A stretch of 64,000 nt of DNA, taken from contig CAYRUS010000002.1 in assembly GCA_964427735.1 (NCBI GenBank), positions 131,734-195,733 of the forward strand. The letters are read 5' to 3'. This document shows positions 7,831 through 49,400 of this stretch, piece after piece. A program made the translations under genes and the position numbers. The notes beneath the pieces were generated by a model. The model had not been told where the DNA came from. It searched no databases and worked only from the letters and a program-made list of their open reading frames with translations. Numbering within the stretch: position 1 is the stretch's first letter; each line of letters begins with the position of its first letter. The stretch comes from an uncultured Gammaproteobacteria bacterium (GTDB lineage Bacteria; Patescibacteriota; Microgenomatia; UBA8517).

Positions 7831-10830
7831 TTACAGTCCAAAATACCAGTCATAGAAGGAGAATCCGTTCTTGCTTGGAGCAGAAGTTCCCACACCACTT
7901 CTGTAATTCGTACCATAAATATGATCCACTAGGTAAGGAAGACCGGAATCATCACCTTCTGCCTTCATTGGTTTACCATCTGAGAAATGACCTTCGTGAA
8001 GCCACTGTACGGATCTTCTTAGAGCCTGGTTTTGCCATTGGAATGCAGGCATTCCTTTTCTGTGCAAGAACCATGCCTGTGCCAAAGCACCTTGTAGAGC
8101 TTCCCAAACGTAATTTTCCTTGCATGGAGGCCAGCTTACTGTTTGACAACCATGCTCACCTTGTCTTCTTTGATCATCTGGCAATACTCCATCAACATTT
8201 CTTTGAGCACCATTTATGGAAATCTTTGCTCCCTGCGGATTGATTCCAACAGGCTGACTTGGATTTGCCTGCCAACCTAAATTACCATAGCTGAATCCTG
8301 AATATAGACTTCTATTTCCTAGCCATCCATGGAATACATTTGCTGCTCTTTGTAGATCTGTATTGTCCCCTAGGAAAATAGCAGCAGCAATTCTACTTGC
8401 TCCTGCGTGTGTTCCCCAATTATTGGGTCTATCTTCATGTGTACTAATAAGTGTTTTACCGTCTAAAGTTTTTGTTCGGACTGAAGAAACCCAGTTTCTG
8501 AATTTTGTTTCATCACTACTTGAGTTAAAACCTACCAAATCAGCAGCAATTATATAGCCTGCTAAGTTTCTACCTAAAGCTAAGGTTCTTCCGCCTGCTT
8601 CAGTTCCAATTGCATCCATTACATAACTTCTAGCTTTACTACAATGACTAGCTGAGCTTTGTCTTACACACACAAGTGCTGCTGCAACAGCGACTGCATC
8701 AGCCTGATTATCTTGATTACTAATATCAGGTGATGTATTTTGATTTGCCCAAGACACGATATTGTTCCAAGCTGATCCGCTTGTTGGCAAAGACATAATT
8801 TCGTTTCTTGATATTAATATTCCAGCACTACTTGAAGGTGGCGGTATTGGTGTACCTGTAGAAGTTGGTGAGGGAATAGCAGTGGCAGGTTTAGCTGTAG
8901 GAGTGGCTGTAGCAGGTTTTGGTGTTGCGGTCGCTGGTTTTGGTGTTGGCGTAGATGTTGCAGGTTTTGCTGTTGGGGTTGTAGGTGTTCCACCCACTTT
9001 TCCATAATTTGTTAACCAGATCACATAATCTAGTCCATCTACTTTCTCATTTCTATCAAAATCTCCTTTTGATGCGCCTTGGCTAGTTGTTGTGTTGTAG
9101 TTTACTAGCCAAACTACATAATCAAGTCCATCTACTTTTTTATCACCGTTTGCATCTCCAGATAGATCACCGGATGATGGTGTTGCTGTAGGATTAGTTC
9201 CTCCTGAAGTTTGTATAAGTAACTGTGGTGCATTTGAGTTTTCTTTTGATTCAACAGAGAAAGTATTTCTAGTACCTGTGTTGGTAATTCCTATTGACAA
9301 TTGTCCACCTACAGCTTGTTGTATTTGACTTGAGTTTAGGTTTATCTCTACTGGTACACCTGTTTGAGTATTTGTACTAATACTTCCTATTTGGGTTCCC
9401 ATGGAAGGTTTATTATTCCAAGCTATATTTCCCTCATTCCAATTATTGTTGGTTACTAAGTGGACTGTTTTATCTACGCTTCTGTCTAAAGCGGGAGTTA
9501 GTTTTAATTTTGCACTTATTATATTTCCTACTATTCCACTTAAATTGAATTTAATGTATGTTTCTCTGATATTTGATAAGGAATAATCTGAAGCTAGTAT
9601 TAAATTGTCACTCCCATAATTTTTACTTTGATTGCCTTCGCTTACCATCGCATCATCTGTTGGAGTAATGACATACCATCCACCACCGACGGGTGATGGT
9701 ATTGATGTGGAAGGAGAAGTAGTAGGATTTGGAGTTGCTGTTCCAGGAGGAGGTGTGGGTATTGGGCTAGAACTCGTTCCACAGCTCAAACCAGTAGCTT
9801 GTAAAATCTTATTCCAAGCTACTCCCGCTACACTTGTGTCATTCTGGATTGCGACAAAAATACCTCCTGGGTATGCGGGAGAATTTTGTTGTGTTGATGC
9901 TATTCCATCAGTATTGTAAACATAATTTCCATTTGGAAGCCTTAGTTTTATTTTTCCTAAATGCTGCCATGTTCTTCTATTGAAGATTTCATAATCATTA
10001 CCAGTAGAAGAGCTGTCAATTTGATCAGAAATAATTATAAATCCTTCTCCATTATCACCGACTCCGTTAGCGGGGCATGAATAAACCCAAATTCCTTCCT
10101 CATCTGAGTTAAAAATACTACTATCTCCAAATTTGTTTGCACCATTTCTTGTATGCACAGATCCATCAGGATTATATGCATAAACTCCACTTCTACCACC
10201 TTCGTCTGGTATATATATTATTTGGTCGAAATTATCAGCCCACATAGTCTCCAAACCTCTTACTGGTTTAAACGTTCCTAGATTTGCACCTGTACTTGGA
10301 TTTTGTATCCTGACCTCTGTGTTATATGAAGTATAGAGTCTTTTTTGTCCGTTTGAAGTTTTCAGGAGTGTTAAATTAGGTTCATTACTACTAATAGAAC
10401 TACCTGTATTAATAGTTTTTACAAAACCTAGGTTTGGTAAATTAAATACACAGATTTTATCTGTGAATGCAACAGTTACATATAGAATGTCATCTTCCTG
10501 ATCTACCCAAACGCCATTTGTACCACCAGAGATACATGAATGCTTTAATGCAGCCTGTTGGCTGGAAGATGAACTATATGGGTATTTCCATACTTCAACC
10601 AATGAGGAACCTTTGGCGGTTACAAACATCAATGATTGAGTAGGATCTGGTGCTTCCCAAAATGCGATACTGTCAACATTGTTTCCATCACCGTTAAGAT
10701 TAAAATCTACTGTTATTTCTTTTGTTCCAAAAGGATTAAAAGCAGCATCAACACGAGGCGAATTATACAAAGCAAAAACTAGTATTAAAGCTAATATAGA
10801 TATTGTTAGTGCAGCTTTTAATTTTTGCAT
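7831..10830 (-). CDS. secreted multidomain protein: signal peptide, beta-propeller (phytase-like) domain, Pro/Thr linkers, beta-sandwich carbohydrate-binding-like domain, dockerin, C-terminal polysaccharide-lyase (alginate-lyase/heparinase-like) domain
   Basis: N-terminal signal peptide 'MQKLKAALTISILALILVFALYNSP'. Two dockerin type-I Ca-binding repeats: 'DANGDKKVDGLDYVVWLVNY' and 'DFDRNEKVDGLDYVIWLTNY'. PT-rich linkers 'TPTPKPATATPKPATATPTAKPAT'. Motif 'NWNEGNIAWNNKP' in the middle domain. C-terminal 'NNWGTHAGASRIAAAIF...WLHEGHF' is reminiscent of alginate-lyase-type alpha/alpha toroids. Confidence 0.7.
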   Translation of the reverse strand: MQKLKAALTISILALILVFALYNSPRVDAAFNPFGTKEITVDFNLNGDGNNVDSIAFWEAPDPTQSLMFVTAKGSSLVEVWKYPYSSSSSQQAALKHSCISGGTNGVWVDQEDDILYVTVAFTDKICVFNLPNLGFVKTINTGSSISSNEPNLTLLKTSNGQKRLYTSYNTEVRIQNPSTGANLGTFKPVRGLETMWADNFDQIIYIPDEGGRSGVYAYNPDGSVHTRNGANKFGDSSIFNSDEEGIWVYSCPANGVGDNGEGFIIISDQIDSSSTGNDYEIFNRRTWQHLGKIKLRLPNGNYVYNTDGIASTQQNSPAYPGGIFVAIQNDTSVAGVAWNKILQATGLSCGTSSSPIPTPPPGTATPNPTTSPSTSIPSPVGGGWYVITPTDDAMVSEGNQSKNYGSDNLILASDYSLSNIRETYIKFNLSGIVGNIISAKLKLTPALDRSVDKTVHLVTNNNWNEGNIAWNNKPSMGTQIGSISTNTQTGVPVEINLNSSQIQQAVGGQLSIGITNTGTRNTFSVESKENSNAPQLLIQTSGGTNPTATPSSGDLSGDANGDKKVDGLDYVVWLVNYNTTTSQGASKGDFDRNEKVDGLDYVIWLTNYGKVGGTPTTPTAKPATSTPTPKPATATPKPATATPTAKPATAIPSPTSTGTPIPPPSSSAGILISRNEIMSLPTSGSAWNNIVSWANQNTSPDISNQDNQADAVAVAAALVCVRQSSASHCSKARSYVMDAIGTEAGGRTLALGRNLAGYIIAADLVGFNSSSDETKFRNWVSSVRTKTLDGKTLISTHEDRPNNWGTHAGASRIAAAIFLGDNTDLQRAANVFHGWLGNRSLYSGFSYGNLGWQANPSQPVGINPQGAKISINGAQRNVDGVLPDDQRRQGEHGCQTVSWPPCKENYVWEALQGALAQAWFLHRKGMPAFQWQNQALRRSVQWLHEGHFSDGKPMKAEGDDSGLPYLVDHIYGTNYRSGVGTSAPSKNGFSFYDWYFGL

Positions 10831-12386: not shown

Positions 12387-12857
12387 TTATTGTTGAACCT
12401 TCATCTTAACTAATCGCATATTCATCGAAGGGTAATTATCTAAATCAATATTTTTCCTTAATGCCCTATTTTTTAGACGGCTCCAATACTTACTTTCTAG
12501 TAAAGCCAATCTTCTAGAATAAGTAATCATATAGCTTCTTGATGTATGGACTAGCTCTCTCCACTCCAAATTTGGGTTGTTTTTCTTTTCATATACTATA
12601 GCTGCATAACGCAATAATTCTGAAGGTTTAATGTATGTACTTTCTATTTTTTTGCTACCTCCTCGATTTCCTTCCGTGGGACCATATCCGTAATGGGGAG
12701 TAAAAAAGCCTAATCTTTTTAAAGACTCATAATCACTTTGGTCAATTCCTAAAATTTTTAATGCTGGAGATATATTTAAATAACCATAACTTTCATCCCA
12801 ATACTTTATCTGTTCAATTTCTGTACCGAAAGGATTAATTTTCTCTTGTTCTCGCAT
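12387..12857 (-). CDS. hypothetical protein (156 aa)
   Basis: Intact ORF, basic C-terminus; no family recognised. Confidence 0.4.
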   Translation of the reverse strand: MREQEKINPFGTEIEQIKYWDESYGYLNISPALKILGIDQSDYESLKRLGFFTPHYGYGPTEGNRGGSKKIESTYIKPSELLRYAAIVYEKKNNPNLEWRELVHTSRSYMITYSRRLALLESKYWSRLKNRALRKNIDLDNYPSMNMRLVKMKVQQ

Positions 12858-12937
12858 ACTTATAAGTACTTCTATTGTATCACTCCATTTATTTTACAGT
12901 GAGTTATCTCATAGAAATACTATTACTAGCATGCAAA

Positions 12938-12976
12938 CGAGCCCACCTTTAAGGGAGTCTCCCTCCAAGGTAGTCG
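12938..12976. repeat. REP-like palindromic element, copy A (CGAGCCCACCTTTAAGGGAGTCTCCCTCCAAGGTAGTCG)
   Basis: Shares the core CCACCTYTAAGGGAGTCTCCCTSCAAGGTAGTCG with copies at 20052, 22058 (inverted), 22822 and 25636. Internal GGGAG-T-CTCCC and flanking CGACNACCTT/AAGGTAGTCG arms form an imperfect hairpin. Lies 55 nt upstream of tRNA-Pro. Confidence 0.7.
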
Positions 12977-13030
12977 CAAAATATTTGAATTCCTAAGATA
13001 TGTGTCTAGCATTTTGATATAATTTTTGTA

Positions 13031-19308: not shown

Positions 19309-19935
19309 TCATTTCTTCTCAACTAATTCTTCTCTAGTGGTTTCCCAATCTTTATCATAAAGAATTTTTTCTATGGCCAGATCATAGTTATGCAGTTCAT
19401 CTGCATCAAACCATAACTTAATCTCTCTTTCTGCTTCTTCAATAGAACCGGATGCGTGAACTAAATTACGAATTGAACGCTCATCTGGATCAGAGATAAA
19501 ATAAGAATCAATAGTCAAGTCAGCAGTAATTGTACCGACATCAGCTGAAAGTGGATTTGTATGACCTCTTATTTTTCTAACGTGCTGAATAGCATGCGCT
19601 CCTTCGATAACCATAGCAACAACTGGACCAGTAACAAGATACCTCATCAATCTTTTTTGGATATCCTCTGCAATTTCAATTGGGGTCCTTTTTATATCCT
19701 CTCCTTTTTCCTTGTACGCCGCAATAGTTCTTTCCCCTAACAGTTGTTTATCTTCTTTTGGCATATCATAGTGGTTTTTTGCCAAAGTAGCAGTTGACCA
19801 AACCATCTTCAATCCAACAACTTTTAACCCCTTTCTTTCGAACCTTGAAATTATTTCTCCAACTAAACCCCTTTGTACTCCATCTGGTTTAACTAAAACT
19901 AATGTTCGCTCGTGATGTTTTGTTTTCCTTGGCAT
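19309..19935 (-). CDS. ndk: nucleoside diphosphate kinase with ~60-aa C-terminal extension
   Basis: 'RTLVLVKPDGVQRGLVGEIISRFERKGLKVVGLKMV' and the catalytic His region 'NLVHASGSIEEAEREIKLWF' are typical NDK; 208 aa is longer than the canonical ~140-150. Confidence 0.85.
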   Translation of the reverse strand: MPRKTKHHERTLVLVKPDGVQRGLVGEIISRFERKGLKVVGLKMVWSTATLAKNHYDMPKEDKQLLGERTIAAYKEKGEDIKRTPIEIAEDIQKRLMRYLVTGPVVAMVIEGAHAIQHVRKIRGHTNPLSADVGTITADLTIDSYFISDPDERSIRNLVHASGSIEEAEREIKLWFDADELHNYDLAIEKILYDKDWETTREELVEKK

Positions 19936-20051
19936 TCTTTTATCCTATTAATAAATCTGACCAATTACTTTACTGATAGTAATATACCACAATTTTAAAA
20001 GACTTTTTAATACAAGATCTGTTTGTAAAAATCTAAAAACAGATTGTTATT

Positions 20052-20096
20052 GTGCGACCACCTCTAAGGGAGTCTCCCTGCAAGGTAGTCGTGACA
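20052..20096. repeat. REP-like palindromic element, copy B (GTGCGACCACCTCTAAGGGAGTCTCCCTGCAAGGTAGTCGTGACA)
   Basis: Near-identical to the copy at 22822-22866 (1 mismatch). Intergenic, between the ndk start and the M16 peptidase 3' end. Confidence 0.75.
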
Positions 20097-20114
20097 ACAA
20101 TACTGTCTGTGGCT

Positions 20115-21386
20115 TTATTTGAGCAAGTCCTCAAATTGTTTCTCATTTTTAAACGGTCCAATTATTGCTAAATTTAATTTCTCTTTTACAAACACATCTT
20201 TAGCAACTTCAACAAGATCTTCTACTGTTACCTTATTTATTCCTTCAAATACTTCCTCTGGTGTCTCAACTCTTCCTAACATCAATTCCTTGATTCCAAA
20301 AAAACTATTTATTGCTTTTGTATCTTCTAGCCCTAATGCCAGATGTCCTTTGAGATACTCCTTTGCTTTTTTAAGTTCATCGTCCTTTATATCATGTCTG
20401 CCATTTGCAATTTGGTAATGTAAATCAAGTATTACCTTTATTGCCTCTGTTGCTCTTTTGGGATCAACTCCAGCATACGCAGAAATATAACCTGTATCCA
20501 GATAATGATCTACATCACTTCTAACTGCATATGCCAAGCCTCTTTTTTCTCTGACTTCAGTAAACAACCTGGAACTCATACCTCCTCCAAGAAGCGTGGT
20601 GAGAACTGCCTCTGCAAATCTTTTATTACTACCGTAAGGGTAACCAATAAATCCAAGAACAAAATGAGCTTGTTCAATATTTTTATTTTTCAAAAAGATT
20701 CTAGGCTCTTTCTGATCAGAGTTGAATTTTTCGTAGTCAGTTACATCTCCATCTTTAAGACTTCCAAAATACTTCTCTGCAAGTTCTATTACTTTATCTT
20801 GATCTATCCCTCCTGAAACAGTTAACAACATATTGTGAGTTTTATAATGTGTATTTCTATACTCCACAAAATCTTCTCTCTTTAGTGAGGTAACTGTTTC
20901 TCTTAGTCCAATAATGTCTCTTCCTAAATCATGGTCATTAAAAATCAAATTCTCGAAATAATCTCCAACTTTGCTCATAGGGATGTCTTCATACATACCC
21001 ATTTCTTCTAAAATAACACCCTTTTCTCTTTCTATCGCATCCTCTTTTAATAATGGTGAAACAACCATGTCTGACAGCACATCAAAGGCAGTTTCAATGA
21101 CACCTGAACGCGATTTTATATAGTAGTTAGTCCATTCCTTCGAGGTAGATGCATTAAATTGAGCACCAATTGCATCCACTGCTGTTGCTACTTCTTGAGA
21201 TGTAGGACGCTTTTTTGTTCCCTTAAAGACCATATGCTCCAAGAAATGAGATATACCTGCGTTAGAGTCTTTTTCAAAACGTGAACCAACACGGGTCCAA
21301 ACTGTAACTGTTGCCGACTCAAAATCCTCAAGAGGAACTGTTAATACTCTTAAACCGTTTTTAAGTTTAGTAATTTGATAGTCCAT
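20115..21386 (-). CDS. M16 family (pitrilysin/insulinase-like) zinc peptidase
   Basis: Inverted zinc motif 'HFLEHMVFKGT' (HxxEH) near the N-terminus; 423 aa, typical for the single-chain M16B type. Confidence 0.85.
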   Translation of the reverse strand: MDYQITKLKNGLRVLTVPLEDFESATVTVWTRVGSRFEKDSNAGISHFLEHMVFKGTKKRPTSQEVATAVDAIGAQFNASTSKEWTNYYIKSRSGVIETAFDVLSDMVVSPLLKEDAIEREKGVILEEMGMYEDIPMSKVGDYFENLIFNDHDLGRDIIGLRETVTSLKREDFVEYRNTHYKTHNMLLTVSGGIDQDKVIELAEKYFGSLKDGDVTDYEKFNSDQKEPRIFLKNKNIEQAHFVLGFIGYPYGSNKRFAEAVLTTLLGGGMSSRLFTEVREKRGLAYAVRSDVDHYLDTGYISAYAGVDPKRATEAIKVILDLHYQIANGRHDIKDDELKKAKEYLKGHLALGLEDTKAINSFFGIKELMLGRVETPEEVFEGINKVTVEDLVEVAKDVFVKEKLNLAIIGPFKNEKQFEDLLK

Positions 21387-21599
21387 TTAGTAAAAGATTG
21401 TATCACCATTTAAGTAAGTTGTCTTGATATAAAAATGTTAGAAACAATCAATTGCAATGGACAAAATATTCATGCGATAATTTATAAATCAAGTTAAATA
21501 AATAGTAATTGGGATTTACCTGAATCAAAGTTTTTATGTTTATATTACCTACTTATTCTGAAGATTAAACTGTGATATATATAAATTAGGAGAAATAAA

Positions 21600-21998
21600 A
21601 TGAATGAGCATTTCAGAAAAATAGCCGCTAAAATCTCACTGGTTGTAGGAACACCATGGGCATTTGTACTCGCGATAGTCATAATTCTAGCCTGGTTTCT
21701 TAGCGGACCTTTATTTGGCTTTTCAGATACATGGCAATTAATAATTAATACAGGTACAACAATAATTACCTTTTTAATGGTATTTCTTATCCAAAACACA
21801 CAGAACAGAGATGCGAAAGCCATTCATCTTAAACTTGATGAGCTAATAAAATCAACAAGAAGCGCAAATAATCAAATGCTAAATGTCGAAGACGTTCCAG
21901 ATGAAGAATTGGAAAGACTGCACCAGGAGTTTAAATCCTTTAACGATAATCATAATCACCCAAAAAGAACCTCTCAAAACAAAAACAAAAAAATATAA
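21600..21998 (+). CDS. small two-TM membrane protein, possibly low-affinity iron permease-like family
   Basis: Two TM helices followed by a 'QNTQNRDAKAIHLKLDELI' amphipathic segment; resemblance to the small bacterial Fet4-like 'iron permease' family is from memory only. Confidence 0.4.
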   Translation: MNEHFRKIAAKISLVVGTPWAFVLAIVIILAWFLSGPLFGFSDTWQLIINTGTTIITFLMVFLIQNTQNRDAKAIHLKLDELIKSTRSANNQMLNVEDVPDEELERLHQEFKSFNDNHNHPKRTSQNKNKKI

Positions 21999-22057
21999 TC
22001 TTTTGATAGAAATTGATCACAAAACTTTCTTATTTCACTAACTAATATCGTTATTGT

Positions 22058-22092
22058 ACGACTACCTTGCAGGGAGACTCCTTGCAAGGTAT
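22058..22092. repeat. REP-like palindromic element, copy C, inverted orientation and more perfectly palindromic (ACGACTACCTTGCAGGGAGACTCCTTGCAAGGTA)
   Basis: Reverse complement of the REP core; arms TACCTTGCA / TGCAAGGTA form a 9-bp stem. Lies immediately upstream of the likely true start (22102) of the RAYT gene and inside the annotated 5' ORF extension. Confidence 0.75.
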
Positions 22093-22101
22093 ACTCCATT
22101 T

Positions 22102-22785
22102 ATGCCTCGCAAAAATACTCTGAAGATGTATGTAGATGATGCCTATTACCACGTTTATAATCGCGGAACCGACAAACGAAATATCTATGAAGATGAAGAA
22201 GACCATCGTGTTTTTCTTGGGTATCTTAAAGAATATTTATCCCCAACTGAAGGCTCAGAACCAAAAAAAGTGCTAGTTAATATAAACAATAAAATATTCC
22301 AAGGTACACCCCGCAAAAGAAAAAACTATTATGAAAACATTGAACTAGTAGCCTATTGTTTAATGCCGAATCATTTTCATCTCTTGATTAAGCAAACAGA
22401 TAAAGAAGCAATGTCTCGCTTTTTGAGATCTCTTCTAACGCGCTATTCAATGTATTTTAATAAGAAATATAATAGAGTTGGTAAGCTCTTTGAAGGACCA
22501 TATAAAGCTGTCTTAATAGATAATGATAGTTATTTGCTTTATCTCACTCGCTATATCCATAAAAACCCTGGAAAGTATAAATTTGATTTGACTAAAGCAT
22601 ACTCATCTTACGCTGAATATTTGGGAATTAGAAAAACACCATGGATAAAGCCAAACTTAATACTTTCTCAATTTTATAATAAAAAATCTCCAGAGATAAA
22701 GAAGTTTATCTCATACGAAGAATTTGTAGAAGGAAAAATTCATTACCCTGTAAGAATGGATGAATATACAATCGAACAAGAATAA
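22102..22785 (+). CDS. IS200/IS605-family-like Y1 (HuH) transposase of the REP-associated tyrosine transposase (RAYT / TnpA_REP) type
   Basis: 'YHVYNRG' N-terminal motif, HuH motif 'MPNHFHLLIKQ', catalytic-Tyr motif 'YLTRYIHKNPGK' (Y-x3-NP). Flanked by inverted REP copies at 22058 and 22822. The track ORF starts at 22054, but the first 16 codons overlap the REP; the start at the Met at 22102 ('MPRKNTL') is preferred. Confidence 0.85.
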   Translation: MPRKNTLKMYVDDAYYHVYNRGTDKRNIYEDEEDHRVFLGYLKEYLSPTEGSEPKKVLVNINNKIFQGTPRKRKNYYENIELVAYCLMPNHFHLLIKQTDKEAMSRFLRSLLTRYSMYFNKKYNRVGKLFEGPYKAVLIDNDSYLLYLTRYIHKNPGKYKFDLTKAYSSYAEYLGIRKTPWIKPNLILSQFYNKKSPEIKKFISYEEFVEGKIHYPVRMDEYTIEQE

Positions 22786-22821
22786 GTAATAAATTGACCC
22801 TCCAAAATCCTTTCTGTCCTT

Positions 22822-22866
22822 GTGCGACCACCTTTAAGGGAGTCTCCCTGCAAGGTAGTCGTGACA
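22822..22866. repeat. REP-like palindromic element, copy D (GTGCGACCACCTTTAAGGGAGTCTCCCTGCAAGGTAGTCGTGACA)
   Basis: 36 nt downstream of the RAYT stop, and 11 nt beyond the 3' end of the convergent argS. Confidence 0.75.
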
Positions 22867-22876
22867 ATTCTAATAG

Positions 22877-24604
22877 CTACATTTTAGTAGGCACCTTAAT
22901 ACCTAGCAAATTCAACCCGTTTTCTAGTACCTGTCTAACCCCATTAGTCAGAGCTAGACGAAAATTCTGATTATCTGATCCAATCATATGGTGCTTGTTA
23001 TAAAACGTATTATATGTTTGTGCCAAATCATATATATAATTAATAAACGTATTGGGTGAGTAAGTCTTTGCCACACTTTCGATCTCTTCTTGATATCGAT
23101 ATAATTTTCGAAGTAACAAATCTTCTTCTTGATTTATTTCTATATTATTGTTCTCCAGACCCTTCAAATCTTTATAGTTTGCCCCCAGAGCCTTAACCAA
23201 TACATTAGAAGCCCGAGCAACAGTATACTGAACATAAGGTCCAGAATTACCTTCTGTAGATATGCTACTTTTTATATCAAATATAATATCCTGTACTGGA
23301 TTTGTCTTTAAAAAGGCATATTTAACTGCCCCAATACCAACTATTTCCGAAATACTTGCCTTCTCTATTTCATTAAGATCTTCTCTACTTTCTACAATCT
23401 CTCTAATCTCCCTGACTATGGTATCCACGAGCTCAACCGCACCGACTATATTACCTGTACGTGAACCCATTTTCCCCTCTTTGAGTTGAATCATACCAAA
23501 ACCAATATGCTCAAGTCTTCCTTTCAAAAGGGGATCAATCTCTTCAAGAGCTTTAAATACTACCTTAAAATATTCATTTTGTTCTGCTGCTGTTGAGATA
23601 ATAAGAAGATCATAAGGCCAATCTTTCATCTTCATCTGCTCCAATGCTAACTCTTTAGCTTCGTATGTAGGAGTTCCATAGCTTGTTATAAAAACTCTAT
23701 CATGTAACCCATACTTGCTACCTTCAAAGATAACTGCCCTTTCACTTTTAGTAAAAACATCATTTAAATTACGCTTCACTTCCTCAATGCCCTTTTCGTA
23801 AACTTCAGACTCAAAATAATACTTGTTGTATACAATACCCAATCTCTCCTCGAAGTGCTTGTAAAACTCAACACTCCATTCTCTTGTTTCTTGCCAAAGA
23901 TCCAGTATCTCAGGATCTTTGGCATAAATTAATCTGTTTAAAGTTTTGATTTCCTCTTGAATTTTTTCATCATCTTTGTATGCCTTTGAGCCGTTTTGAT
24001 ACATTTCTTGAAGGAGTTTAACCTTATCTTCTAAACCTTCCGGTATCAGAGGCTTTTCTTTTTGAAAAGCCCAAAGACATTTTGCCACATGTAAGCCAAC
24101 ATCACCTTGGTAGTTGGCACGAAAAACTTCCGCACCAGTTGCCTCAAGAAATCTACTCATACTTTCGCCGTAGATATATGAAAAAAGATGACCGATGTGA
24201 GGCATTTTATGGGTATTCGGTTGGCCAAACTCAAACATTATACGTTTACCTTGAAATAAATCAGACTTCCCATACTTGTCACCTCTTGTATTTACCGTTT
24301 TTAAGTTATCGGTCAATACTTCTTTTTTAATCCAAAAATTAATAAAACCGGGACCAGCCACTTCGATTTTTGATATATAATTTTTTAGATTGTTATCTTT
24401 TGATAGCTTAGATACAATTTCTTCAGCAGCTTTTCTAGGATCTTTTTTTTCCTTACTTGCTATTTGCATTGCTATATTTGATGAATAGTCACCATTATCC
24501 ATACTCTGAGGAAACTCTATATGGACATTTTTTTCTTCGGTTACATTTTGTAACGCTTCGTGGATTTTATTTCTTACCTGCATTATGCTATTGTACACGC
24601 TCAA
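22877..24604 (-). CDS. argS: arginine--tRNA ligase
   Basis: Class I 'HIGH' motif 'PHIGHLFSYIYGESMSRF', 575 aa, C-terminal DALR-type anticodon-binding region. Confidence 0.9.
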   Translation of the reverse strand: MSVYNSIMQVRNKIHEALQNVTEEKNVHIEFPQSMDNGDYSSNIAMQIASKEKKDPRKAAEEIVSKLSKDNNLKNYISKIEVAGPGFINFWIKKEVLTDNLKTVNTRGDKYGKSDLFQGKRIMFEFGQPNTHKMPHIGHLFSYIYGESMSRFLEATGAEVFRANYQGDVGLHVAKCLWAFQKEKPLIPEGLEDKVKLLQEMYQNGSKAYKDDEKIQEEIKTLNRLIYAKDPEILDLWQETREWSVEFYKHFEERLGIVYNKYYFESEVYEKGIEEVKRNLNDVFTKSERAVIFEGSKYGLHDRVFITSYGTPTYEAKELALEQMKMKDWPYDLLIISTAAEQNEYFKVVFKALEEIDPLLKGRLEHIGFGMIQLKEGKMGSRTGNIVGAVELVDTIVREIREIVESREDLNEIEKASISEIVGIGAVKYAFLKTNPVQDIIFDIKSSISTEGNSGPYVQYTVARASNVLVKALGANYKDLKGLENNNIEINQEEDLLLRKLYRYQEEIESVAKTYSPNTFINYIYDLAQTYNTFYNKHHMIGSDNQNFRLALTNGVRQVLENGLNLLGIKVPTKM

Positions 24605-24764
24605 GCTAGAATATTTCTAGTTTGTGTGGTTTGAAGCAGAGGTCGAAATATTGCGAGAACCCGATTTATAGAGAGATCAAAATAGATTTAATCTATAATT
24701 AGAAACAAAAACTGATACATTAACTCAATTTGCAAACTAGTTTAGACATATATAGAAAAATACA

Positions 24765-25628
24765 ATGAGTGAAGTATTACCACCCAATGACAAAGACAAG
24801 GGAGAACAAATTAAAACTCCCTACGAACTTATTGAGTACATTTGGGATAAAGCATTAGAAGATCCTGGCAGGAAATCAATCGAAGAAGAAAGACAGTCAG
24901 GTTTAACTTCTATGGAAAAAGATTTATTAGCACTTGTTCCAAGTCACAGTAGCGCATGGAAAAAATTTTCTTTGGATTTCATCTCTGATCCTACTAGTGT
25001 GGAACTTCATGACCCAGAAATCATAGAAAGCAAAGATATCCAGTTTGTCGAACACGCCACTGGTTCTCCGGACAACCCAATAGAGAATCTACCACTAAAA
25101 TATTCTATAATGGAAGCATCTATAGATAAAACCGAATTTCAAAGATTGCCTCATGACTTTGAAAAAGCACCACCACAAGTATACGTAAATGTGAGAGAGA
25201 TATTCAGCGACTCTGAAAGAGATGTTCAAAATATACTTAGAGGGTTACTAGAAGAATATATTAACCCTCTAAGATCAAATAGGTACGGAGAACGAATTAA
25301 GAAGAAAAGAGATACTTTAAGAAACGAGATTTTAAAGATATCTAGCATACTACTAACAGACCTGACTCTTATAGGAAAAGTTGTTTACTACAATCCAAAT
25401 GTTAGAAATCGAGAACCGTTGAATATTCTCGGATTTAGGCTGCTATTTACAGCTGGTGGAAATTTGATTGTCTACAAACTACTAAAATGGCATGGTAAGA
25501 ACACACAATCAAAAATGAATTTGGACCTACCAAGTTATGATATTGTAAAAAATAAAATCCACCCAGAGCTTGAAATACCGATGAGAAAATTTTCTCAAGA
25601 AATCAGAAAACGAGCTGGTAAGTTGTAA
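24765..25628 (+). CDS. hypothetical protein (287 aa)
   Basis: Intact ORF divergent from argS; no recognisable family. Confidence 0.4.
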   Translation: MSEVLPPNDKDKGEQIKTPYELIEYIWDKALEDPGRKSIEEERQSGLTSMEKDLLALVPSHSSAWKKFSLDFISDPTSVELHDPEIIESKDIQFVEHATGSPDNPIENLPLKYSIMEASIDKTEFQRLPHDFEKAPPQVYVNVREIFSDSERDVQNILRGLLEEYINPLRSNRYGERIKKKRDTLRNEILKISSILLTDLTLIGKVVYYNPNVRNREPLNILGFRLLFTAGGNLIVYKLLKWHGKNTQSKMNLDLPSYDIVKNKIHPELEIPMRKFSQEIRKRAGKL

Positions 25629-25635
25629 TTCAAGT

Positions 25636-25670
25636 ACTTTAAAGGAGTCTCCGCATGAGGTGGTCGCGCA
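25636..25670. repeat. REP-like element, partial/rearranged copy E (CTTTAAAGGAGTCTCCGCATGAGGTGGTCGCGCA)
   Basis: Contains the REP centre 'TTTAAAGGAGTCTCC' followed by the reverse complement of the left arm (AGGTGGTCGC). Intergenic, between the 24765 ORF and the ComEC-MBL gene. Confidence 0.55.
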
Positions 25671-25686
25671 ATAACTAATTATGTAA

Positions 25687-26580
25687 CTATCTGCTGGTAT
25701 TTATACTGTAGCTGCTACCATCTGTACTCAATATCACATGTCCAGATGTATCAGTTCTATATACTTCTAATCCTTTTGTTCTTAACATTTCTAGAATTTC
25801 TTTATGTGGATGTCCCCATGGATTCTTACCAGACGAAATAACAGCAATCTCTGGATTAGATTTTTCTAGCAAGTCTCTAGTAAGCCCATTTTTGCTTCCG
25901 TGATGAGGTACTTTTAGATACTCTATATCACTTACCTCTCCTGCTAAAATCATGTCGTCGGTTATTTCTGGTTCAATATCCCCTGTCAACAACGCATCAA
26001 ACTCACCATACCTCATATGAATAACAACCGAAAAATTATTAGGATTTTCATCACTATCATATACTCCAAGCACATTAGAATCTTTAACACTAATTTTATT
26101 TGAACTGATAAAATTGCTTGTTGGCCAAATTACATCTAAATTAATCTCTCCAATATTAATGTTTCTTGTACTTTGCAATTCAATGGTGTCAGTATTACTA
26201 TTTCCAACTAATCCTTCTAATGTCTCCCACTCTATCCCTTCAGCATCTAACCCACTAGTAGCAAAATACTTCACATTATATCTTTCTACTACATCAATAA
26301 GACCGCCAAAATGATCTTTTTGTGGGTGAGTTACTATAACCATATCAATACTCCTATCCCAAAATGGAATATATCTACTCAGGCAATCCATAACTTTGCT
26401 ATTAGGTCCACCATCTATTAATATCTGGTTTTTGCCATGAACAACTAAAATTGCATCCCCCTGTCCTACATCACATGCAATTAATTTTAATTTAGGACTT
26501 GGCCAGTTAATTAGTATTAAAATTAGAAGACTAAGAGCAAGTAGTGTAAAAAACAAAAATACTTTCGTCCCTTTTGACAT
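25687..26580 (-). CDS. ComEC-type metallo-beta-lactamase-fold domain protein (separate gene), N-terminal signal/anchor
   Basis: 'LIACDVGQGDAILVVHGKNQILIDGGP' and 'MVIVTHPQKDHFGGL' (HxHxDH-like MBL motif), as in the C-terminal nuclease-like domain of ComEC/Rec2. Confidence 0.75.
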   Translation of the reverse strand: MSKGTKVFLFFTLLALSLLILILINWPSPKLKLIACDVGQGDAILVVHGKNQILIDGGPNSKVMDCLSRYIPFWDRSIDMVIVTHPQKDHFGGLIDVVERYNVKYFATSGLDAEGIEWETLEGLVGNSNTDTIELQSTRNINIGEINLDVIWPTSNFISSNKISVKDSNVLGVYDSDENPNNFSVVIHMRYGEFDALLTGDIEPEITDDMILAGEVSDIEYLKVPHHGSKNGLTRDLLEKSNPEIAVISSGKNPWGHPHKEILEMLRTKGLEVYRTDTSGHVILSTDGSSYSINTSR

Positions 26581-42559: not shown

Positions 42560-43498
42560 AAGTAAATGTCTAAATTATTGTAGCATGTTGCCAAGATTGT
42601 TACTTGTATTTTTGTACCTTTTAATAAATCGCCGTGCAACAATGTCCTAGAGTCATTGTTTTCAACTAATTAATATTAGTCTAAATTGGACATACCGACC
42701 TCCTCCAGTATTAATTGTCCAACTTTTACAATAATTATCAAATAGATATAGTAATCATATTTCCTTCTAAATATTGATTTATAGGTTGTACTTTGAGTAT
42801 AACTAAGCACCAAATCTAATAAAATTTCTTAAATTTCTTCGAAATATTAGCTATGTAAAGCTTTTATATCCTAAATAATATTCTAATTCTCAAATTGGAG
42901 AGAAATATAAGTGGATATGTTTTTTCTGCAAGTAATGCGTTATTTTACGAGCCTTATTTGTCCGTAATTTGTAAATAGATATAATTTCTGCATTCTATTT
43001 ATGGAAAATAATAGATATTTGTATTGATTTTGTTGCGGTTTAATATGCGTATATTTTATTTCCGCACGGTATTTGTTCGTTTATCATGCCTATTTTTAGT
43101 AAATTGATGTCGCTAATGCTTATGTGACAATTGTATGATTAAATTTCTCACTTATTTCTGCAAATATGGCAAATTGCGGAAATATACCTTCGCTTATCAT
43201 CTTATGGCATTGAACACGGATGCCAATAATTTGACTGATATATACCGCATGACGTGCGTTTATTATGCCTAAATTTCATTTTTACCTTTAGTTGCAAGAT
43301 TAAAACTTATTTAGCAAGAAGTCTTCAAGTATTTACCTAACTAAAATTTCAACCTAGCCTGATTAAGGTTTTAAGTAGAAGCATCTTCCAACGTATTAAT
43401 CTAAAAATTACCACAATAATGCCCCATAAATAAATATAAAACGATATTGACAACAACAGCCAAAACTGTATTAATGATATTGGACATTACAAACTTAA

Positions 43499-46400
43499 AT
43501 GTCCATTTTTAATACCTGTCCAATGCCCAACAGTACAAAAGTCTATCTATCAATACACGAAGCTGCTGATTACTTGAATGTATCACGCAAAACATTAAGG
43601 CGATGGGAAAAGACTAAAGTGTTAATTCCCTTGCGCACTTCAGGTGGCCATAGAAGATATACAAAAGACCAGCTAGATAAGTTTAAAAAGATTAAAGGTA
43701 GAAAAAGAATAACAAGCAAAGTAAAGACTAAAGTATTCGAAAACAAGACTAGCCAAGCGGTACAGTTACCTACTTTGAGTAATACTAACAAAACTCAAGA
43801 AAGAACGTCAGAAGATAGTAATATTAATCTTCTTGACACAAATATAAATAATAGCCCAAAAGACGAATATATAGATTACAATGACAACCATGAACACACT
43901 ATCAAATATCATAAGGATCACATTCCTATAATCGAAACAGAAACACCATCTCAAATCACCACCGAAAATCTAATTTTGCCTCAGAATAATATCCAGACTA
44001 ATTCCAAACCTAAAAATAACGCAAGTAAATTGAGATCTGTTTCCTACTTCTTTGTGTTTCTACTCTTGTTTGGTGGATTTGTATACTCTGTAAAAGCACT
44101 CCCTGGAGTGGATCTAAATATATCAAAAGGTATCAAGTCTAGTATGGCAGGCTCATCAAACAGTGGGAATATCCAATCAGCCTTTGAAAGGGTCCTTGCT
44201 GCAACCTCTTTTAATCTTTCCTTATTACGCGTAAATGTAAACTCAATTTTCGAAGAAGACATTGCAATTAATGGTGAGAATATAACTACATCATCAGATA
44301 CAATCAATTTATTCAATGAGAACGCTACAACAATTTCCTTTGGAGGCGAAGCTGAAGCAATAAACATAGGAGCTCCCACAGGAACTACAGTTATTAATAA
44401 TGCATTAAATGTAGGATTAGATTTAGCTGTTAATGGTAATTTGTCTGTAGTAGGTATTGCTACTCTAAACACGCTTACTTTAGGAGCAGACACTATTACA
44501 GATATTACTGGAGATGGATTAATTGTGGTTGATGGTGCTCTTACTTCTACATTTGGATCGTCAATAGATTCTACTGATATAACAGATGGAACTATCTCTT
44601 CAGTAGATCTTAATATATCAAACTCTCCCTCTGATGGATTAATCCTAGCCTATGATGAATCCACCGGAGGTTTTACCTGGGTAGTAGACCAAACCGGGGC
44701 TGGAGGAAGCTTGTTCACAGACGCTGGCACAGTAACATATTTAACCGATACTACTGATGACTTGGTTATCGGCGGGACAGTTGCACTCTCCTCCAGTAAA
44801 GTATCAATAGATGGAGATAGTGACCAAATACAATTCTTAGTTCAAGGAAATTCAACCCAAACTACAAACCTTGCAGTTTTCGAACAATCAGATGGAACAG
44901 ACGTATTAACAATTGACAACTCAGGAAACTTAATAACCGCAGGAAGCATTTCAGCGGCCACCAATGAAACTATTAACGGAATTGATATTAGTGCTGGTAC
45001 TATTTCTGATGTTGTTAATTTACTCATTAATGCTGGCGGGGATTTATCAATTGGAGGAATTGGTTTAAGTGATACTGGAGCTAATAATCTAACATCAGGT
45101 GCAAGCCTAATTGGTGTTTTTGACGAATTCACAAATTCTAACTCCACTACACTCCAAGCTGTATTAAATGACCTTGATGCGGCAATAGGATCTGGTTCAT
45201 CCAAGTGGACACAAGATGTTGGATTTATTTATCTCACTAACTCGACAGACTCTATTACAATTGGAGGAAACACAGAGCTTGGAAAACTTGCTATAGCAGG
45301 TGATGCTGACGAATTGCAGTTTGTTGTTAGAGGAAATGCAACCCAAACAGCAAACCTAGCTACCTTTGAAAACTCCTCAGGGGATGATCTTTTGGCAGTT
45401 ACAAGTATGGGAGATCTTCTATCGGGATTTACACAGTTAGATGGAAGTTCAACTGCAAACGGTGCAGGTGCAGCCTCAAAAACTTTGGTCTTACAAGCAG
45501 GTGGTGGCGCCAATTTTGATATTGGAAACTATGTAAGAATTGATAGTACAAACTGCGACGGTGCCGCTGACACTTGTTATTCAAAAATTAGAGGTAAATC
45601 TGGCGACACACTTACACTAAGCAATTCCCTAACCTGGGCAAATGGTAGTGTTGTTTTAGAATATCATATACCCGAAGTCGGAGGAACTAACCTAGCTGAT
45701 ACTCTTGATAATAGATATGGTCTAGGTTATTTCATCAGCGGTGTAACCACAGGAAATGCCTCAACTTTCTATGGGGATGGCGAAATAACAACCTCAAGTG
45801 TTACTAATTTGAATTCTAAAAGCTTATCCATTCGTACAGGAAACTCAGTTGTTTCAGGAAACTCCGGAGATATAATAATTGATACTGGATCTGCAGAAGG
45901 TACAGCAGGTACAATTTCTATTGGAGAAAATAACACAAGCGGTATCACAATAGGTCATAGTGGTATAAATACTACCATATCAGGAAATCTTATTTTCAAC
46001 AGCCAAACAATTAATAACTTTACCGGCAATGGTCTAACAACATCCTCAGATGCTCTAACGATTCAACTAACAAATGCAGCAGACGAACTATCTTCTACAA
46101 CAAGCTCAGGGTCTGGTTTGGAAGTATTATCATCTGGTTTGACCCTTCTCCAAGGATGCGATAACGGTCAAGTTCTAAAGTGGAATGAATCAAATAATTC
46201 ATGGGAATGTGCAAATGACACAGGAGCCTCAAGTGCTGTAATAAATGTAGAAAACAATGATGTAGAAGTTGGTACAGACGTAGACACATTGGACTTTAGC
46301 ACAGATTTTATTCTTACAGCTTCTCCTTCTAACGAGGTCAACATATCCATAGCGGATGATGTTATAAACTTTACGGAAATTAGTGATTCGTTAACACTAG

Positions 46401-49400
46401 ACGCAAATACAAATGTAGCGCTAGGAGCTTTAACTTTTTCCACTTCAGGCACAGGATCTTTAGATTTTAATTCAACTGGTCAAGTATCCTTTGCGGGAAA
46501 TGTTGATGCGGAAAATGGACTTGACGTTACTGGATCATCATTAACTGTAGGTGGCACGGCATTTGTAGTTGGTACAGACGGAACGATTAGCGCAGGAACC
46601 TGGAGTGGAACTGCAATTGCTGCTCAGTACGGTGGAACAGGTATCGACACATCAGGAGCTACAGGTGTTCCTTATGTTTCTTCAGGTATTTGGAATACTG
46701 AATCCACTTTATCTCTTTCTCGCGGAGGTACAGGAGCATCACTTACTGATCCTAACGCTGATAGAATCCTCTTCTGGGATGACTCCGCAAACTCCACTGC
46801 CTTCCTTACTGTAGGATCTGGTCTTTCTCTCTCTGATACCACTCTCTCTGCTGTTGATACTTCTGCTACTAATGAATTGCAAAACCTCTTCTCTACTATC
46901 TCTGTCTCTGGACAAAGTAATGTAGTCGCTGATTCAATCACTGATACTCTTACTCTTGCAGCCGGATCTAATATCTCCATCACTACTGATGCATCTAATG
47001 ACATTATTACTATCGCTGCCTCTGACTCTGATACTAACAACTTCACTACAAGCATCGCTTTTACCGGTACCTCTACAAAAACTTTAACTCTAACTAGAAA
47101 TGGTCTAGCTGATCTAACTGCAAACTTTACTGATATTGGCTTTGATAACCCTATGACTACTGCAGGAGATATTATTTATGGCGGTGTTAGTGGAACAGCA
47201 ACCAGACTAGCAGGTTCTGCTAATGATGGTTACGTACTAAAATTTGATGCTAATACCAATGCTCCATTTTGGGCAGAACTCATAGATAATGATACAAACT
47301 ATTGGGAATTAAGTGAAGGCATTCTCTCTCCAGATACATCTCAAAACGCAGAAGGTATCGCAGCAACATCTTCTGCGACAACAGTTGCTACATTCACAAG
47401 CACTGGTTCAAATGATTCTTTTTGGGCAGGATCCGTAGGTAATTATTTGACAATTTCCTCTACCGGAGGTCTTACTGTCCCGGGAGCAACAAATCTTAAC
47501 GGTTCCTTTAGTTTAGGAGATGGTGGCGACACAGGATCAATTAATACATCGACATGGGACATTTCATCCACAGGAGCAATTACTGGTGCTACTTATGAAG
47601 GATTAACTATCACTACAACTACCGGTACTCTTACTATCGCATCTGGAAAGACATTAACCGCAAATAACTCCCTTACCCTTGTAGGTAATGATTCTGATAC
47701 TTGGACTTTCCCCTCTGCTTCTGGAGCGTCAGGGACAGTAGTTGGCACTGATGAATCTCAAACCTTAACAAACAAAACACTCACAAGTCCTAGAATCGGT
47801 ACCTCTATTCTTGATACTAACGAAAATCCTCTTTTTTCTCTCTCTGCAACCGGTTCAGCTGTCAATTACCTAACTTATGCTAATGCAGCTACAGGAAACA
47901 ATCCCACCTGGACTGCTACTGGGTCTGATACGAATATTTCCCTCACTACGTTGCTTAAAGGCACTGGAGCTGTTCTGTTTGGCTCAACTATTGCGAATTC
48001 TGATACAATCAGTATCAAACCACAAACTTCTACTACAACTAACCCTTTTTCTGGAACTATTACCTCTGAAGATTTAACTGCTGATAGGACCTGGACTTTC
48101 CAAGATGCAGACGGCACCCTGGCTTTCTTATCTGATATTCCTACTTCTGATAACTACCAATACTGGACATTATCTGATGGTTCTAATACAGCTCAAATCA
48201 ATAGCACTGAAACTTTTCAAATAAATACAGGTACAGGAATTACTGCTCTTGTAGCAGAAGGATCGCCAAATACATTGACGCTTTCTGTAACGGATGATTC
48301 TGATACTAATGAATTGCAAAATCTCTTCTCAACTATCGCCGTTTCCGGGCAAAATAATGTCGTCGCAGATTCAATTACTGATACTCTTACCCTTGCAGCC
48401 GGATCTAATATCTCTATAACAACAGATGATACTAATGACATTATTACCATAGCAGCCACAGATACAAATACTACCTACTCCGCAGGGAATGATCTAGATT
48501 TATCGGGTACTCAATTTAATATCGAATCTGAGCTTAATTTTGTAACCAGTATAAACCCAACAAATTCTGCACTTTCTTTAGCATCAAATGGATCTGGTAA
48601 TGATATAAATTTAACATCAGCAAACGCCATTGCCTTTGATGATGCCACATTAACTACAGCGATTACACTCACAGATACAGACACTGCTTTTGATTCTGGT
48701 CATACAGCCATAGTAGATGCTATAAATGCAGCTTATAATGCAGCAACGGGTGGAGGTGCAGGACTTTGGGAGGTAAATTCTGGTGTGTTAAATCCTTCAA
48801 GTTTAACTCAAGATCTAGCCATTGGAGGTACTGATAACACTGCAGCGCTTTTCTTTGATACAAGTACCTCTGCTTTAACATTAAATCCTTTTGGTACATC
48901 AACAGGCAATACGGGAGAGTTAAGACTTACAGAACTTGCTGCAGAAGGTACTAATTATACCGGATTTAAATCTCCTGACTCTTTAGATGCAAACTTGATG
49001 TATACACTTCCTTCCTCAGCAGGATCTAATAATTATGTACTTACAACAGATGGTTCTGGAGGTCTATCCTGGCAAGCTGTAGGAGATGTTGGCGCTGGTT
49101 CTGGAGACGTAACTGCTGTCGGTGATTGTTCTGGAAATGATTGCTTTACTCAATCAGGAACAGGAAATACTCTCTATTTTGAAGGAGCTACGGCAAATGA
49201 CTTTGAAATTGCTCTGACAACCACAGGAGACCCAGATCAAGACTACACAATCACATTGCCAAATGCTTCTGGTGAAATTACAGTATTAGGCCAAAGTATT
49301 GATTTGACAAGCGAAGTTACAGGTGTACTTCCTTTGGCTAGCGGAGGTACAGGAGCATCACTTACTGATCCTAACGCTGATGGAATCCTCTTCTGGGATG

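Follow-up and report, generated by a model that had tools for sequence, protein, structure and literature searches.

To our knowledge, systems that pair repetitive extragenic palindromic (REP) sequences with REP-associated tyrosine transposases (RAYTs) have been studied almost only in Proteobacteria. REPs stabilise mRNA 3' ends. Bacteria of the candidate phyla radiation (CPR, Patescibacteria) have genomes that are among the smallest known. The TnpA-Y1 proteins comprise those of IS200 (subclass 1.1) and those of class 2, the latter marked by a Y-x3-NP motif, low copy number and divergent paralogs (Quentin et al. 2018, PMC6006769). Class-2 Y1 genes are found mainly in large genomes (PMC6006769). 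The signature of subclass 2.1 is NH[YF]H, FQ (or W[EQ]), Y[IV]HLNP and an SS tail in a protein of ~238 aa (PMC6006769, Table 1), and this subclass has been described as being without REP-like sequences (PMC6006769). Bertels group 1 is among the most IS-like RAYT groups (Bertels 2017, PMC5581495). TIRYT genes are flanked by plain terminal inverted repeats (TIRs) of the form GGGGWSAS, some of which are self-complementary and form small repeat families (Di Nocera 2013, PMC3733652). Here we describe a unit from a CPR bacterium, in which a gene for a RAYT-like Y1/HUH tyrosine endonuclease is bracketed by copies of an imperfectly palindromic DNA hairpin. The unit lies in a stretch of 64,000 nucleotides (contig CAYRUS010000002.1, positions 131,734 to 195,733), which is called the window below and was analysed as a whole. 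A preliminary description of the window had taken the unit for a clean REP-RAYT system. The best explanation, to which we assign a probability of about 70%, is a REPtron-like unit composed of a RAYT-like endonuclease and its cognate hairpin. A literature search found no paper linking RAYT or REP with CPR or Patescibacteria, nor one linking Rickettsia palindromic elements (RPEs) with CPR.

A RAYT-like endonuclease gene

The window protein exhibits the HUH motif as N90-H91-F92-H93 (NHFHLL, residues 90-95), the catalytic tyrosine motif as R150-Y151-I-H-K-N155-P156 (RYIHKNP, a Y-x3-NP motif) and an AYSSY tail motif at residues 166-170. Both the HuH and the Y-x3-NP motifs named in the preliminary description are therefore present in an open frame of the expected extent. 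Pfam Y1_Tnp matches residues 78-155 with an E value of 7e-11. The NCBIfam model REP_Tyr_transpos (NF047646), which matches residues 78-159, scores 38.3 bits, and the transpos_IS200 model scores 13.1 bits against a cut-off of 55, placing the RAYT profile ahead by 25 bits. The preference for the RAYT over the IS200 profile thus holds, although the RAYT cut-off of 80 is missed. All 28 aligned family members match the RAYT model (best E 1e-13), and only six match the IS200 model, weakly. Residues N90, H91, H93, R150, Y151, N155 and P156 are invariant in the alignment of 28 homologs, which indicates that the enzyme is under selection.

The AlphaFold (AF2) model of the window protein has a pLDDT of 82.6 and a pTM of 0.79. 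Its top Foldseek match in the PDB is 4ER8_A (E 1.3e-4, probability 1.00), from the E. coli RAYT-REP complex, which ranks ahead of the IS608, ISDra2 and IS200 transposase structures. The protein carries an insertion of 25 aa before the HUH motif and a C-terminal helical tail, and has no Pfam match to a C-terminal helix-turn-helix (HTH) domain of the Bac_DnaA_C, HTH_23 or HTH_28-like type. The window open reading frame (ORF) is RAYT-like and is not a classical IS200 transposase; its product is best read as a chromosomal, probably domesticated class-2 Y1/HUH tyrosine endonuclease.

The Y1_Tnp domain would also suit an autonomous insertion sequence (IS) of the IS200/IS605 type. In that case the hairpins would be the left and right ends, the 0.8-kb unit would transpose, and the solo copies would be excision scars or derivatives resembling miniature inverted-repeat transposable elements. 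The two kinds of protein share the HUH/Y1 chemistry and, if the CPR enzyme behaves by analogy to the IS200/IS605 TnpA proteins (IS608, ISDra2; subclass 1.1), the recognition of subterminal hairpins on single-stranded DNA (ssDNA). However, those proteins have Y-x3-Q and ~150 aa, in contrast to Y-x3-NP and 227 aa here (PMC6006769, Table 1), and the IS200 profile score falls far below its cut-off. IS200/IS605 elements are near-identical and multi-copy, often carry tnpB and are transferred horizontally, none of which is seen for the window unit or its relatives. A tnpB gene is absent, the neighbours of the window gene are an Fe-permease gene and argS, and no second copy of the RAYT-like gene was found in the 64 kb, where it is single.

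Hairpin copies in the window

Five copies of the hairpin element were located, four of them intact and one degenerate (Table 1). The 27-nt core, with at most three mismatches, has 4 matches in the 64 kb against 0.00 expected in shuffled sequence, and the 9-mer GGAGTCTCC has 5 against 0.17. These counts, far above expectation, exclude chance as the origin of the copies. The four intact copies fold with z values of -2.7 to -4.9 into a 9-10-bp outer stem, a small internal loop, a 5-bp inner stem and a 3-nt loop, whereas the copy at 25637 does not fold (z +1.1 and +0.15) and was not detected by the covariance model.

Table 1 Coordinates of the RAYT-like gene and the hairpin elements in the window.
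Feature	Coordinates	Strand	Description
RAYT-like Y1/HUH tyrosine endonuclease gene	22102..22785	+	open reading frame, 227 aa
Relic of in-frame hairpin insertion	22270..22311	+	residues 57-70, VLVNINNKIFQGTP
Upstream hairpin copy	22049..22092	+	repeat 22058-22092; ends 9 nt before ATG
Downstream hairpin copy	22815..22867	-	repeat 22822-22866; opposite orientation to upstream copy
Solo hairpin copy	20045..20097	-	repeat 20052-20096; covariance model 35.5 bits (20058-20087)
Solo hairpin copy	12930..12982	-	repeat 12938-12976; covariance model 36.8 bits (12943-12972)
Degenerate hairpin copy	25637..25675	-	core GGAGTCTCC and arm AGGTGGTCGCGCAATAAC kept, left arm lost

The upstream copy consists of the conserved 5' arm GTTATTGTACGAC followed by the hairpin TACCTTGCAGGGAGACTCCTTGCAAGGTA, and lacks the gene-proximal outer arm. 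It folds with -11 kcal/mol (z -4.2), and the covariance model assigns it 36.2 bits on the + strand (22063-22092) vs 27.9 bits on the - strand. The downstream copy fills the 91-nt gap between the stop codon of the RAYT-like gene (22785) and that of the convergent argS gene (22877), starting 36 nt past the former and ending 10 nt ahead of the latter. Its - strand (-13.5 kcal/mol, z -4.9) is more stable than its + strand (-11.5 kcal/mol) because G-T stands in place of a C-A mismatch, and the model again separates the strands, with 41 bits on - (22828-22857) vs 24.5 bits on +. By this criterion the upstream copy is opposite in orientation to the other three intact copies, and the gene is indeed bracketed by inverted copies of the palindrome.

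The 20052 copy lies 18 nt downstream of the stop codon of the M16 peptidase gene (20115) and upstream of ndk. It equals the 22822 copy at 44 of 45 positions, that is, one position differs and the identity is 97.8% rather than the 99% given earlier. The 12938 copy, the outer left arm of which has diverged, occupies a head-to-head gap upstream of the ORF 12387-12857 (-) and 55 nt upstream of tRNA-Pro (13031). The degenerate copy lies between the convergent stop codons of the ORF 24765-25628 and a metallo-beta-lactamase (MBL)/ComEC-like gene (25687-26580). The three further copies of the preliminary description, the last of which it had called rearranged, are therefore all present. Its placement of them at gene 3' ends and in tail-end gaps is correct for 20052 and 25637 and fails for 12938. 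The element also exceeds the ~45 nt proposed: with its conserved arm, ATTGY(N)CGAC, the stem reaches ~57 nt (GTTATTGTGCGAC...GTCGTGACAA). No hairpin copy was matched in Rfam at the gathering or E-value thresholds, which returned two tRNAs only.

Four of the five copies lie within 8-36 nt of stop codons and the upstream copy abuts a start codon, where it could control translation. REPs are known as stabilisers of mRNA 3' ends. Such features would suit host regulatory or structural hairpins (transcript-end stabilisers, attenuators or protein-binding sites) that stand beside a decaying transposase gene and are uncoupled from the enzyme. We consider this improbable. A head-to-head gap in front of a tRNA gene holds one of the copies, and the invariant catalytic residues do not fit a decaying gene. 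The hairpin sequence tracks the adjacent gene genome by genome, with a separate hairpin for each paralog, and copies in frame inside genes, in several frames, are unexplained by a 3'-end function (both described below). A role as intrinsic terminators, which the preliminary description names for REPs in general, was rejected: the copies have no T-tract, none resembles such a terminator and none was called by a terminator scan.

The exact window protein is on record solely in a 2.8-kb Logan contig (L001, SRR7082976_18473; L and P numbers are our handles for loci and proteins) that corresponds to window 20068-22864. The ends of this contig fall inside the hairpin copies 20052 and 22822, which have an identical stretch of more than 31 nt. 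A k-mer assembler would stop in such a repeat.

Most long ORFs before 42.6 kb lie on the - strand, whereas those from 43.5 kb onward lie on +, and cumulative GC skew is lowest at ~48-50 kb. These signs may mark a replication origin at ~43000-50000 of the window, in which case the lagging-strand template would include the template strand of four of the five hairpin copies. A lagging-strand orientation bias (4/5 copies on -, left of a possible origin at ~43 kb) was nevertheless discarded, as five copies and an unverified origin are too little to sustain it.

The family of homologs

The 90%-identity collection contains more than 7,500 relatives of the window protein, of 226-230 aa; the best is 62% identical, and the named relatives belong to Patescibacteria. 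The 50%-identity library holds 373 clusters at E <= 1e-30 and 9,599 at E <= 1e-10. A scan of the GTDB species representatives gave at least 600 stretches, at least 589 of them confirmed. Of these at least 600, 80 were kept as the homolog set, which further look-ups enlarged to ~90 loci. The 80 kept loci are almost all from CPR bacteria (Woese-, Gottesman-, Levy- and Daviesbacteria, Saccharibacteria), some third-party-annotation metagenome-assembled genomes (MAGs) among them bearing other lineage labels that are unverified. The family consensus is NHFH / LFQG / YIHLNP / AYSSY in 226-230 aa, with the variants LFEG and YIHKNP in the window protein. Paralogs within a genome are 38-66% identical (12 pairs), none of them near-identical, and each has its own hairpin. 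Carriage of the RAYT-like gene by phages was rejected, since 2.9 million viral contigs contained a single distant relative only.

Among the best 150 cluster representatives, about half have a length of 340-470 aa. All eight of these that were scanned with Pfam (P0124, P0126, P0128, P0133, P0146, P0166, P0201, P0265) combine Y1_Tnp with a C-terminal SH3_3 domain, and P0128 has an N-terminal MerR HTH domain as well. In the four fused sequences that were read, a hydrophobic, transmembrane-like stretch lies between Y1_Tnp and SH3_3 and the NP of the tyrosine motif is lost. Together, these features point to a second, non-transposase host function.

The RAYT-like proteins of L072 and L080 are 98% identical and their flank hairpins are identical, in MAGs labelled Gastranaerophilales and Saccharibacteria; this likeness indicates either mis-binning or recent transfer.

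Gene and hairpin are cognate

For 66 of the 90 homologs, the similarity between upstream and downstream flank exceeds the 99th percentile of non-cognate flank pairs. The hairpin sequences are genome-specific (e.g. AAGGTCCGACCTT, AGGGTCAGACCCT, GAGGACTGTCCTC, GGAGTCTCC). These genome-specific flank hairpins, together with the separate hairpin of each paralog, show that gene and hairpin are cognate. The closest relatives share the template of the window, TACCTTGCA-(inner hairpin)-TTAAAGGTA, also given as ACCTTGCA-inner hairpin-TTAAAGGT, 8-16 nt before the ATG. In this template the outer stem and an asymmetric internal loop are constant, whereas the inner stem is variable yet paired. In a set of 29 template elements, chosen in part for inner pairing, 88% of cells are paired and 7 of 11 pairs have changed on either side, which is above both controls. 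Compensatory changes thus maintain the pairing of the hairpins.

When metagenome contigs were scanned for the element itself, with CCTTGCARGGNNNNNCCYTTAAAGG, at least 120 stretches were obtained, with 142 exact matches among those listed. Of these matches, 54 are at or in a RAYT-like gene and 88 are solo, so that the hairpin is common in metagenomes without the gene; 125 have an extra complementary pair in the unspecified loop positions, which argues that they are real hairpins. Large contigs (up to 956 kb) have 1-3 exact matches each among those listed, and the copy number per genome accordingly looks low. By blastn-short, 25 of the 89 homolog loci carry solo copies of their own flank element no further than 10 kb away.

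By motif-level comparison, the CPR clade appears to be nearest to TnpA-Y1 subclass 2.1, which equals Bertels group 1 and TIRYT. It resembles this subclass in NH[YF]H, FQ for W, Y[IV]HLNP and the SS tail (PMC6006769, Table 1), in a length of ~230-240 aa and in divergent paralogs within a genome, and its best non-CPR sequence matches are of this type. The nearest annotated non-CPR relatives are 'transposases' of 287-295 aa from plasmids of Sporomusa and Legionella (L082, L083), with 29-31% identity. They possess a Bac_DnaA_C-like HTH domain and are flanked by TIRs of the GGGGTCAGG type, GGGGTCAGGCC / GGAGGGTCAGGCC (L082 1417-1450/2369-2402; L083 1339-1364/2309-2334), which correspond to the TIRYT consensus GGGGWSAS. 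Some CPR hairpin cores (AGGGTCAGACCCT) contain the GGGTCAG of the TIR consensus, and some TIRs are themselves self-complementary and form small repeat families (Di Nocera 2013, PMC3733652). It could be argued from these likenesses that the window unit is a plain TIRtron and that the 'hairpins' are the incidental self-complementarity of TIR arms. This is very improbable, because each flank copy is a complete hairpin by itself, pairing is kept by compensatory change, and solo hairpins outnumber gene-linked ones among the listed matches. In addition, the CPR clade has true hairpins on both sides rather than plain GGGGWSAS TIRs, and its proteins lack the C-terminal Bac_DnaA_C/HTH tail and have instead their own 25-aa insertion, between helix A and strand 2.

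The cores of many CPR hairpins (AGGGTCAGACCCT) have the appearance of a pair of TIR ends joined head to head. Many homologs have REPIN-like doublets on their flanks, in which 3-20 nt separate two inverted hairpins (L006 470-546 and 1242-1313; L014 9550-9621 and 10313-10380; flanks of L012, L013, L030, L041, L050 and L079). The doublet spacer is similar between L006 and L014.

A recurring chromosomal neighbourhood

The window gene is part of a recurring neighbourhood, ndk - M16 peptidase - (Fe-permease) - RAYT-like gene - argS - MBL/ComEC (window 19309-26580). Homologs directly adjoin ndk/M16 (L003, L014, L085), the Fe-permease gene (L026), argS (L004, L045, L086) and MBL/ComEC (L043, L086). 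For the 80 loci, a rough estimate gives ~1 such direct adjacency by chance vs 6 seen (L003, L004, L014, L026, L043, L045); L085 and L086 are two further look-ups and stand outside this estimate. The excess speaks for a long stay of the gene in a single part of the chromosome that has been reshuffled locally. The neighbourhood is kept among relatives whose proteins are only 41-59% identical. Two copies in the window mark slots that hold the gene elsewhere: the 20052 solo copy occupies the ndk-M16 slot of a RAYT-like paralog in L014, and the 25637 degenerate copy lies beside the orthologous MBL gene, in the slot that holds a RAYT-like gene in L043 and L086.

Hairpins in frame inside genes

Among 93 genes of relatives, the flank hairpin of the same genome occurs in frame inside the RAYT-like gene at two hot spots. 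The first, before the HUH motif (codons ~57-68), is occupied in 26 genes and the second, just after RYIHxNP (codons ~157-170), in 25. Five genes have both, and control gene segments have hairpins in 0-3 of the 93. The loci with intragenic hairpins include L002, L004, L005, L007, L011, L018, L045, L059, L065, L072, L076, L077 and L084-L087. Intact copies at the first site are at the same codons in L002, L004, L005, L007 and L084-L087, and in L086 the intragenic and upstream copies are identical (30/30 nt). The first site encodes a conserved FTLQGxxFKG(I/V)P (ACC TTG CAA GG. ....CC TTT AAA GGT), which coincides with the clade-specific insertion. The window gene carries a relic of it, in which the 3' half (TTCCAAGGTACACC) alone is still recognisable. 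This segment is absent from non-CPR relatives and forms a beta-hairpin in the model of the window protein.

In genes for RadA, Fmt, FolD, DinB and a GT2 glycosyltransferase, each represented by several contigs, the same hairpin of ~30 nt also lies in frame in metagenome loci of the relatives (L093, L101, L109, L112, L116, L122, L125, L133, L135, L136, L141, L148, L156, L190, L196, L198, L206). In these housekeeping genes it is read as LQGxxFKG, FKGxxLQG or PLKxxPCKV. One site in RadA has the hairpin in either orientation. As RadA homologs that lack it (L103, L124) are shorter by only 2 aa at that position, simple insertion does not tell the whole story. Intact in-frame hairpins inside protein genes were found in the relatives only, not in the window.

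Two known systems are comparable. In subclass 2.4 (Bertels group 4; Cyanobacteria, Bacteroidetes) a REP lies in frame inside tnpA-REP, as in the relatives of the window gene. However, the in-frame REPs of subclass 2.4 lie between HUH and Y, whereas the CPR sites lie before HUH and after the tyrosine motif. Moreover, subclass 2.4 has WQ and YIxNNP motifs that are absent from the window protein, and the window gene has a relic only. RPEs, reportedly described by Ogata and colleagues in 2000, resemble the CPR element in being palindromic, in frame in conserved housekeeping genes in varied orientations and frames, and at home in reduced genomes poor in intergenic space. They differ in having ~100-150 bp and no known dedicated enzyme, in contrast to a CPR element of ~30 bp that is paired with a Y1 endonuclease gene.

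A wider reading can be put forward tentatively, and with some doubt. CPR bacteria may harbour a large, vertically persisting RAYT-like clade, the target hairpin of which would be extragenic, in frame in its own gene (in two permissive loops, changing in step with the flanks) and in frame in radA, fmt, folD and dinB, in either orientation and several frames; membrane-anchored, SH3-fused derivatives would have a further host function. If this is true, it amounts to an RPE-like case of 'selfish DNA in proteins' with an identified enzyme, and class-2 Y1 genes occur in genomes far smaller than thought.

Weighing the REPtron-like reading

The E. coli TnpA-REP REPtron (subclass 2.2, Bertels group 2) is similar to the window unit in the Y1/HUH fold, with 4ER8 as the best match, in Y-x3-NP and, it appears, in low gene copy number. 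In both, oppositely oriented imperfect palindromes bracket the gene and also occur solo in extragenic gaps. The window protein differs in its lack of a significant sequence match, its sub-cut-off NCBIfam score, its 227 aa, the 25-aa insertion before HUH and the C-terminal helical tail. The E. coli hairpins number in the hundreds, as opposed to an apparent handful here, and a large proteobacterial genome contrasts with that of an ultra-small CPR host.

Several results weigh against the REPtron-like reading. At 38.3 bits, the protein stays short of the curated RAYT cut-off of 80 and is thus not an equivalog; a unit that is REPtron-like in its working would thus be a variant rather than a member of the RAYT equivalog. 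When PDB sequences were searched with either the protein or the family profile, marginal ISDra2 matches alone came up and no RAYT or 4ER8, so that the fold search was needed to reach 4ER8. Neither strand has the 5' GT[AG]G foot, GTAG/GTGG being present solely inside the 3' arms of the copies. Subclass 2.1, the nearest by motif, has been described as not REP-associated (PMC6006769). The five copies are all at 12.9-25.7 kb (within 13 kb), the solo ones no more than 10 kb from the gene, and the covariance model, run over all 64 kb with filters off, found the four intact copies and none in the remaining 51 kb. The copies are thus clustered around the gene and not evenly dispersed, in contrast to the dispersed copies of the preliminary description. 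The exact 23-mer GGAGTCTCCCTSCAAGGTAGTCG of the window element has 0 matches in metagenome contigs, a collection that does not include the source organism, and the genome-wide copy number of the hairpin is probably low. The notion of a clean REP-RAYT system therefore survives in part: the protein is RAYT-like, the gene is bracketed and solo copies exist, but the profile score (38 vs 80 bits), the missing foot and the subclass 2.1-like motifs set the unit apart.

Two further unfavourable points bear on mobility as well. The two flank copies are direct in 43 homologs and inverted in 15, like the ends of IS200/IS605 elements such as IS608; inverted bracketing is therefore not a rule of the family, and the window unit belongs to the inverted minority. 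The RAYT-like gene also lies in different intergenic slots of one neighbourhood across genomes (L003, L014, L085 and the window), and the whole unit could accordingly move. Both points fit the autonomous IS introduced above, as do the window solo copies in slots that hold the gene in relatives, a possible start-codon-proximal hairpin as in the IS200 5' untranslated region, and the nearest group, Bertels group 1, being among the most IS-like (PMC5581495). We nonetheless regard an autonomous IS as unlikely. None of the 12 within-genome pairs is near-identical and the window has one copy of the gene; the neighbourhood persists among relatives of 41-59% protein identity; viral contigs are essentially free of the family; and the flank copies in the window are inverted.

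Proposed mechanism and implications

By analogy to E. coli TnpA-REP and IS608 TnpA, the enzyme of the REPtron-like unit would bind the hairpin when it is extruded on ssDNA, e.g. on the lagging-strand template. Strand discrimination would rest on two features, the 5' arm and the conserved, asymmetric 2x2 internal loop, in which GC faces TA. Cleavage next to the hairpin would proceed via a 5'-phosphotyrosine link to Y151, and H91 and H93 would coordinate the metal ion. The hairpin may then be copied or moved at low frequency into new sites, which in a ~90%-coding genome would be short intergenic gaps and, in relatives, permissive protein loops. Speculatively, the upstream copy, which ends 9 nt ahead of the ATG, may also serve through its 3' arm (AAGGT) as a sequestered ribosome-binding site; the upstream hairpin would then brake translation of the enzyme itself, as in IS200.

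The unit brings the logic of a hairpin with a dedicated HUH endonuclease to ultra-small, gene-dense CPR genomes. The family, which spans hundreds of GTDB species and, at 50% identity, at least 373 clusters, is apparently undescribed, and a 2.1-like protein type, reported without REPs, is here paired with hairpins. Intergenic space is scarce, and the hairpins evidently settle in protein loops too, including those of the enzyme's own gene. The family may thus provide a tractable system for target choice, persistence and hairpin-enzyme co-evolution, and a possible source of short, strand-specific ssDNA recognition modules. For annotation, these CPR genes should not be counted as IS200 insertion sequences.

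Other features of the window

Two giant ORFs are located in the second half of the window. The ORF 43499-55456 encodes a protein of 3985 aa that has a MerR-type HTH domain at its N-terminus and also a Peptidase_S74 domain (endosialidase chaperone), and the ORF 55380-61295 encodes 1971 aa with six LamG domains. This region has a GC content of 0.40-0.43 vs 0.34 in the rest of the window. It contains internal repeats of 300 nt and 215 nt in near-identical copies (93-99% identical) at 46719/49338 and 49892/51173, with a third 300-nt copy at 60%. Inside the ORF 7831-10830, which encodes a CBM96 protein of 999 aa, there are imperfect tandem repeats (GCAGGTTTTGGTGTT...) at 8852-8974 and 9689-9763, their period being 21-27 nt.

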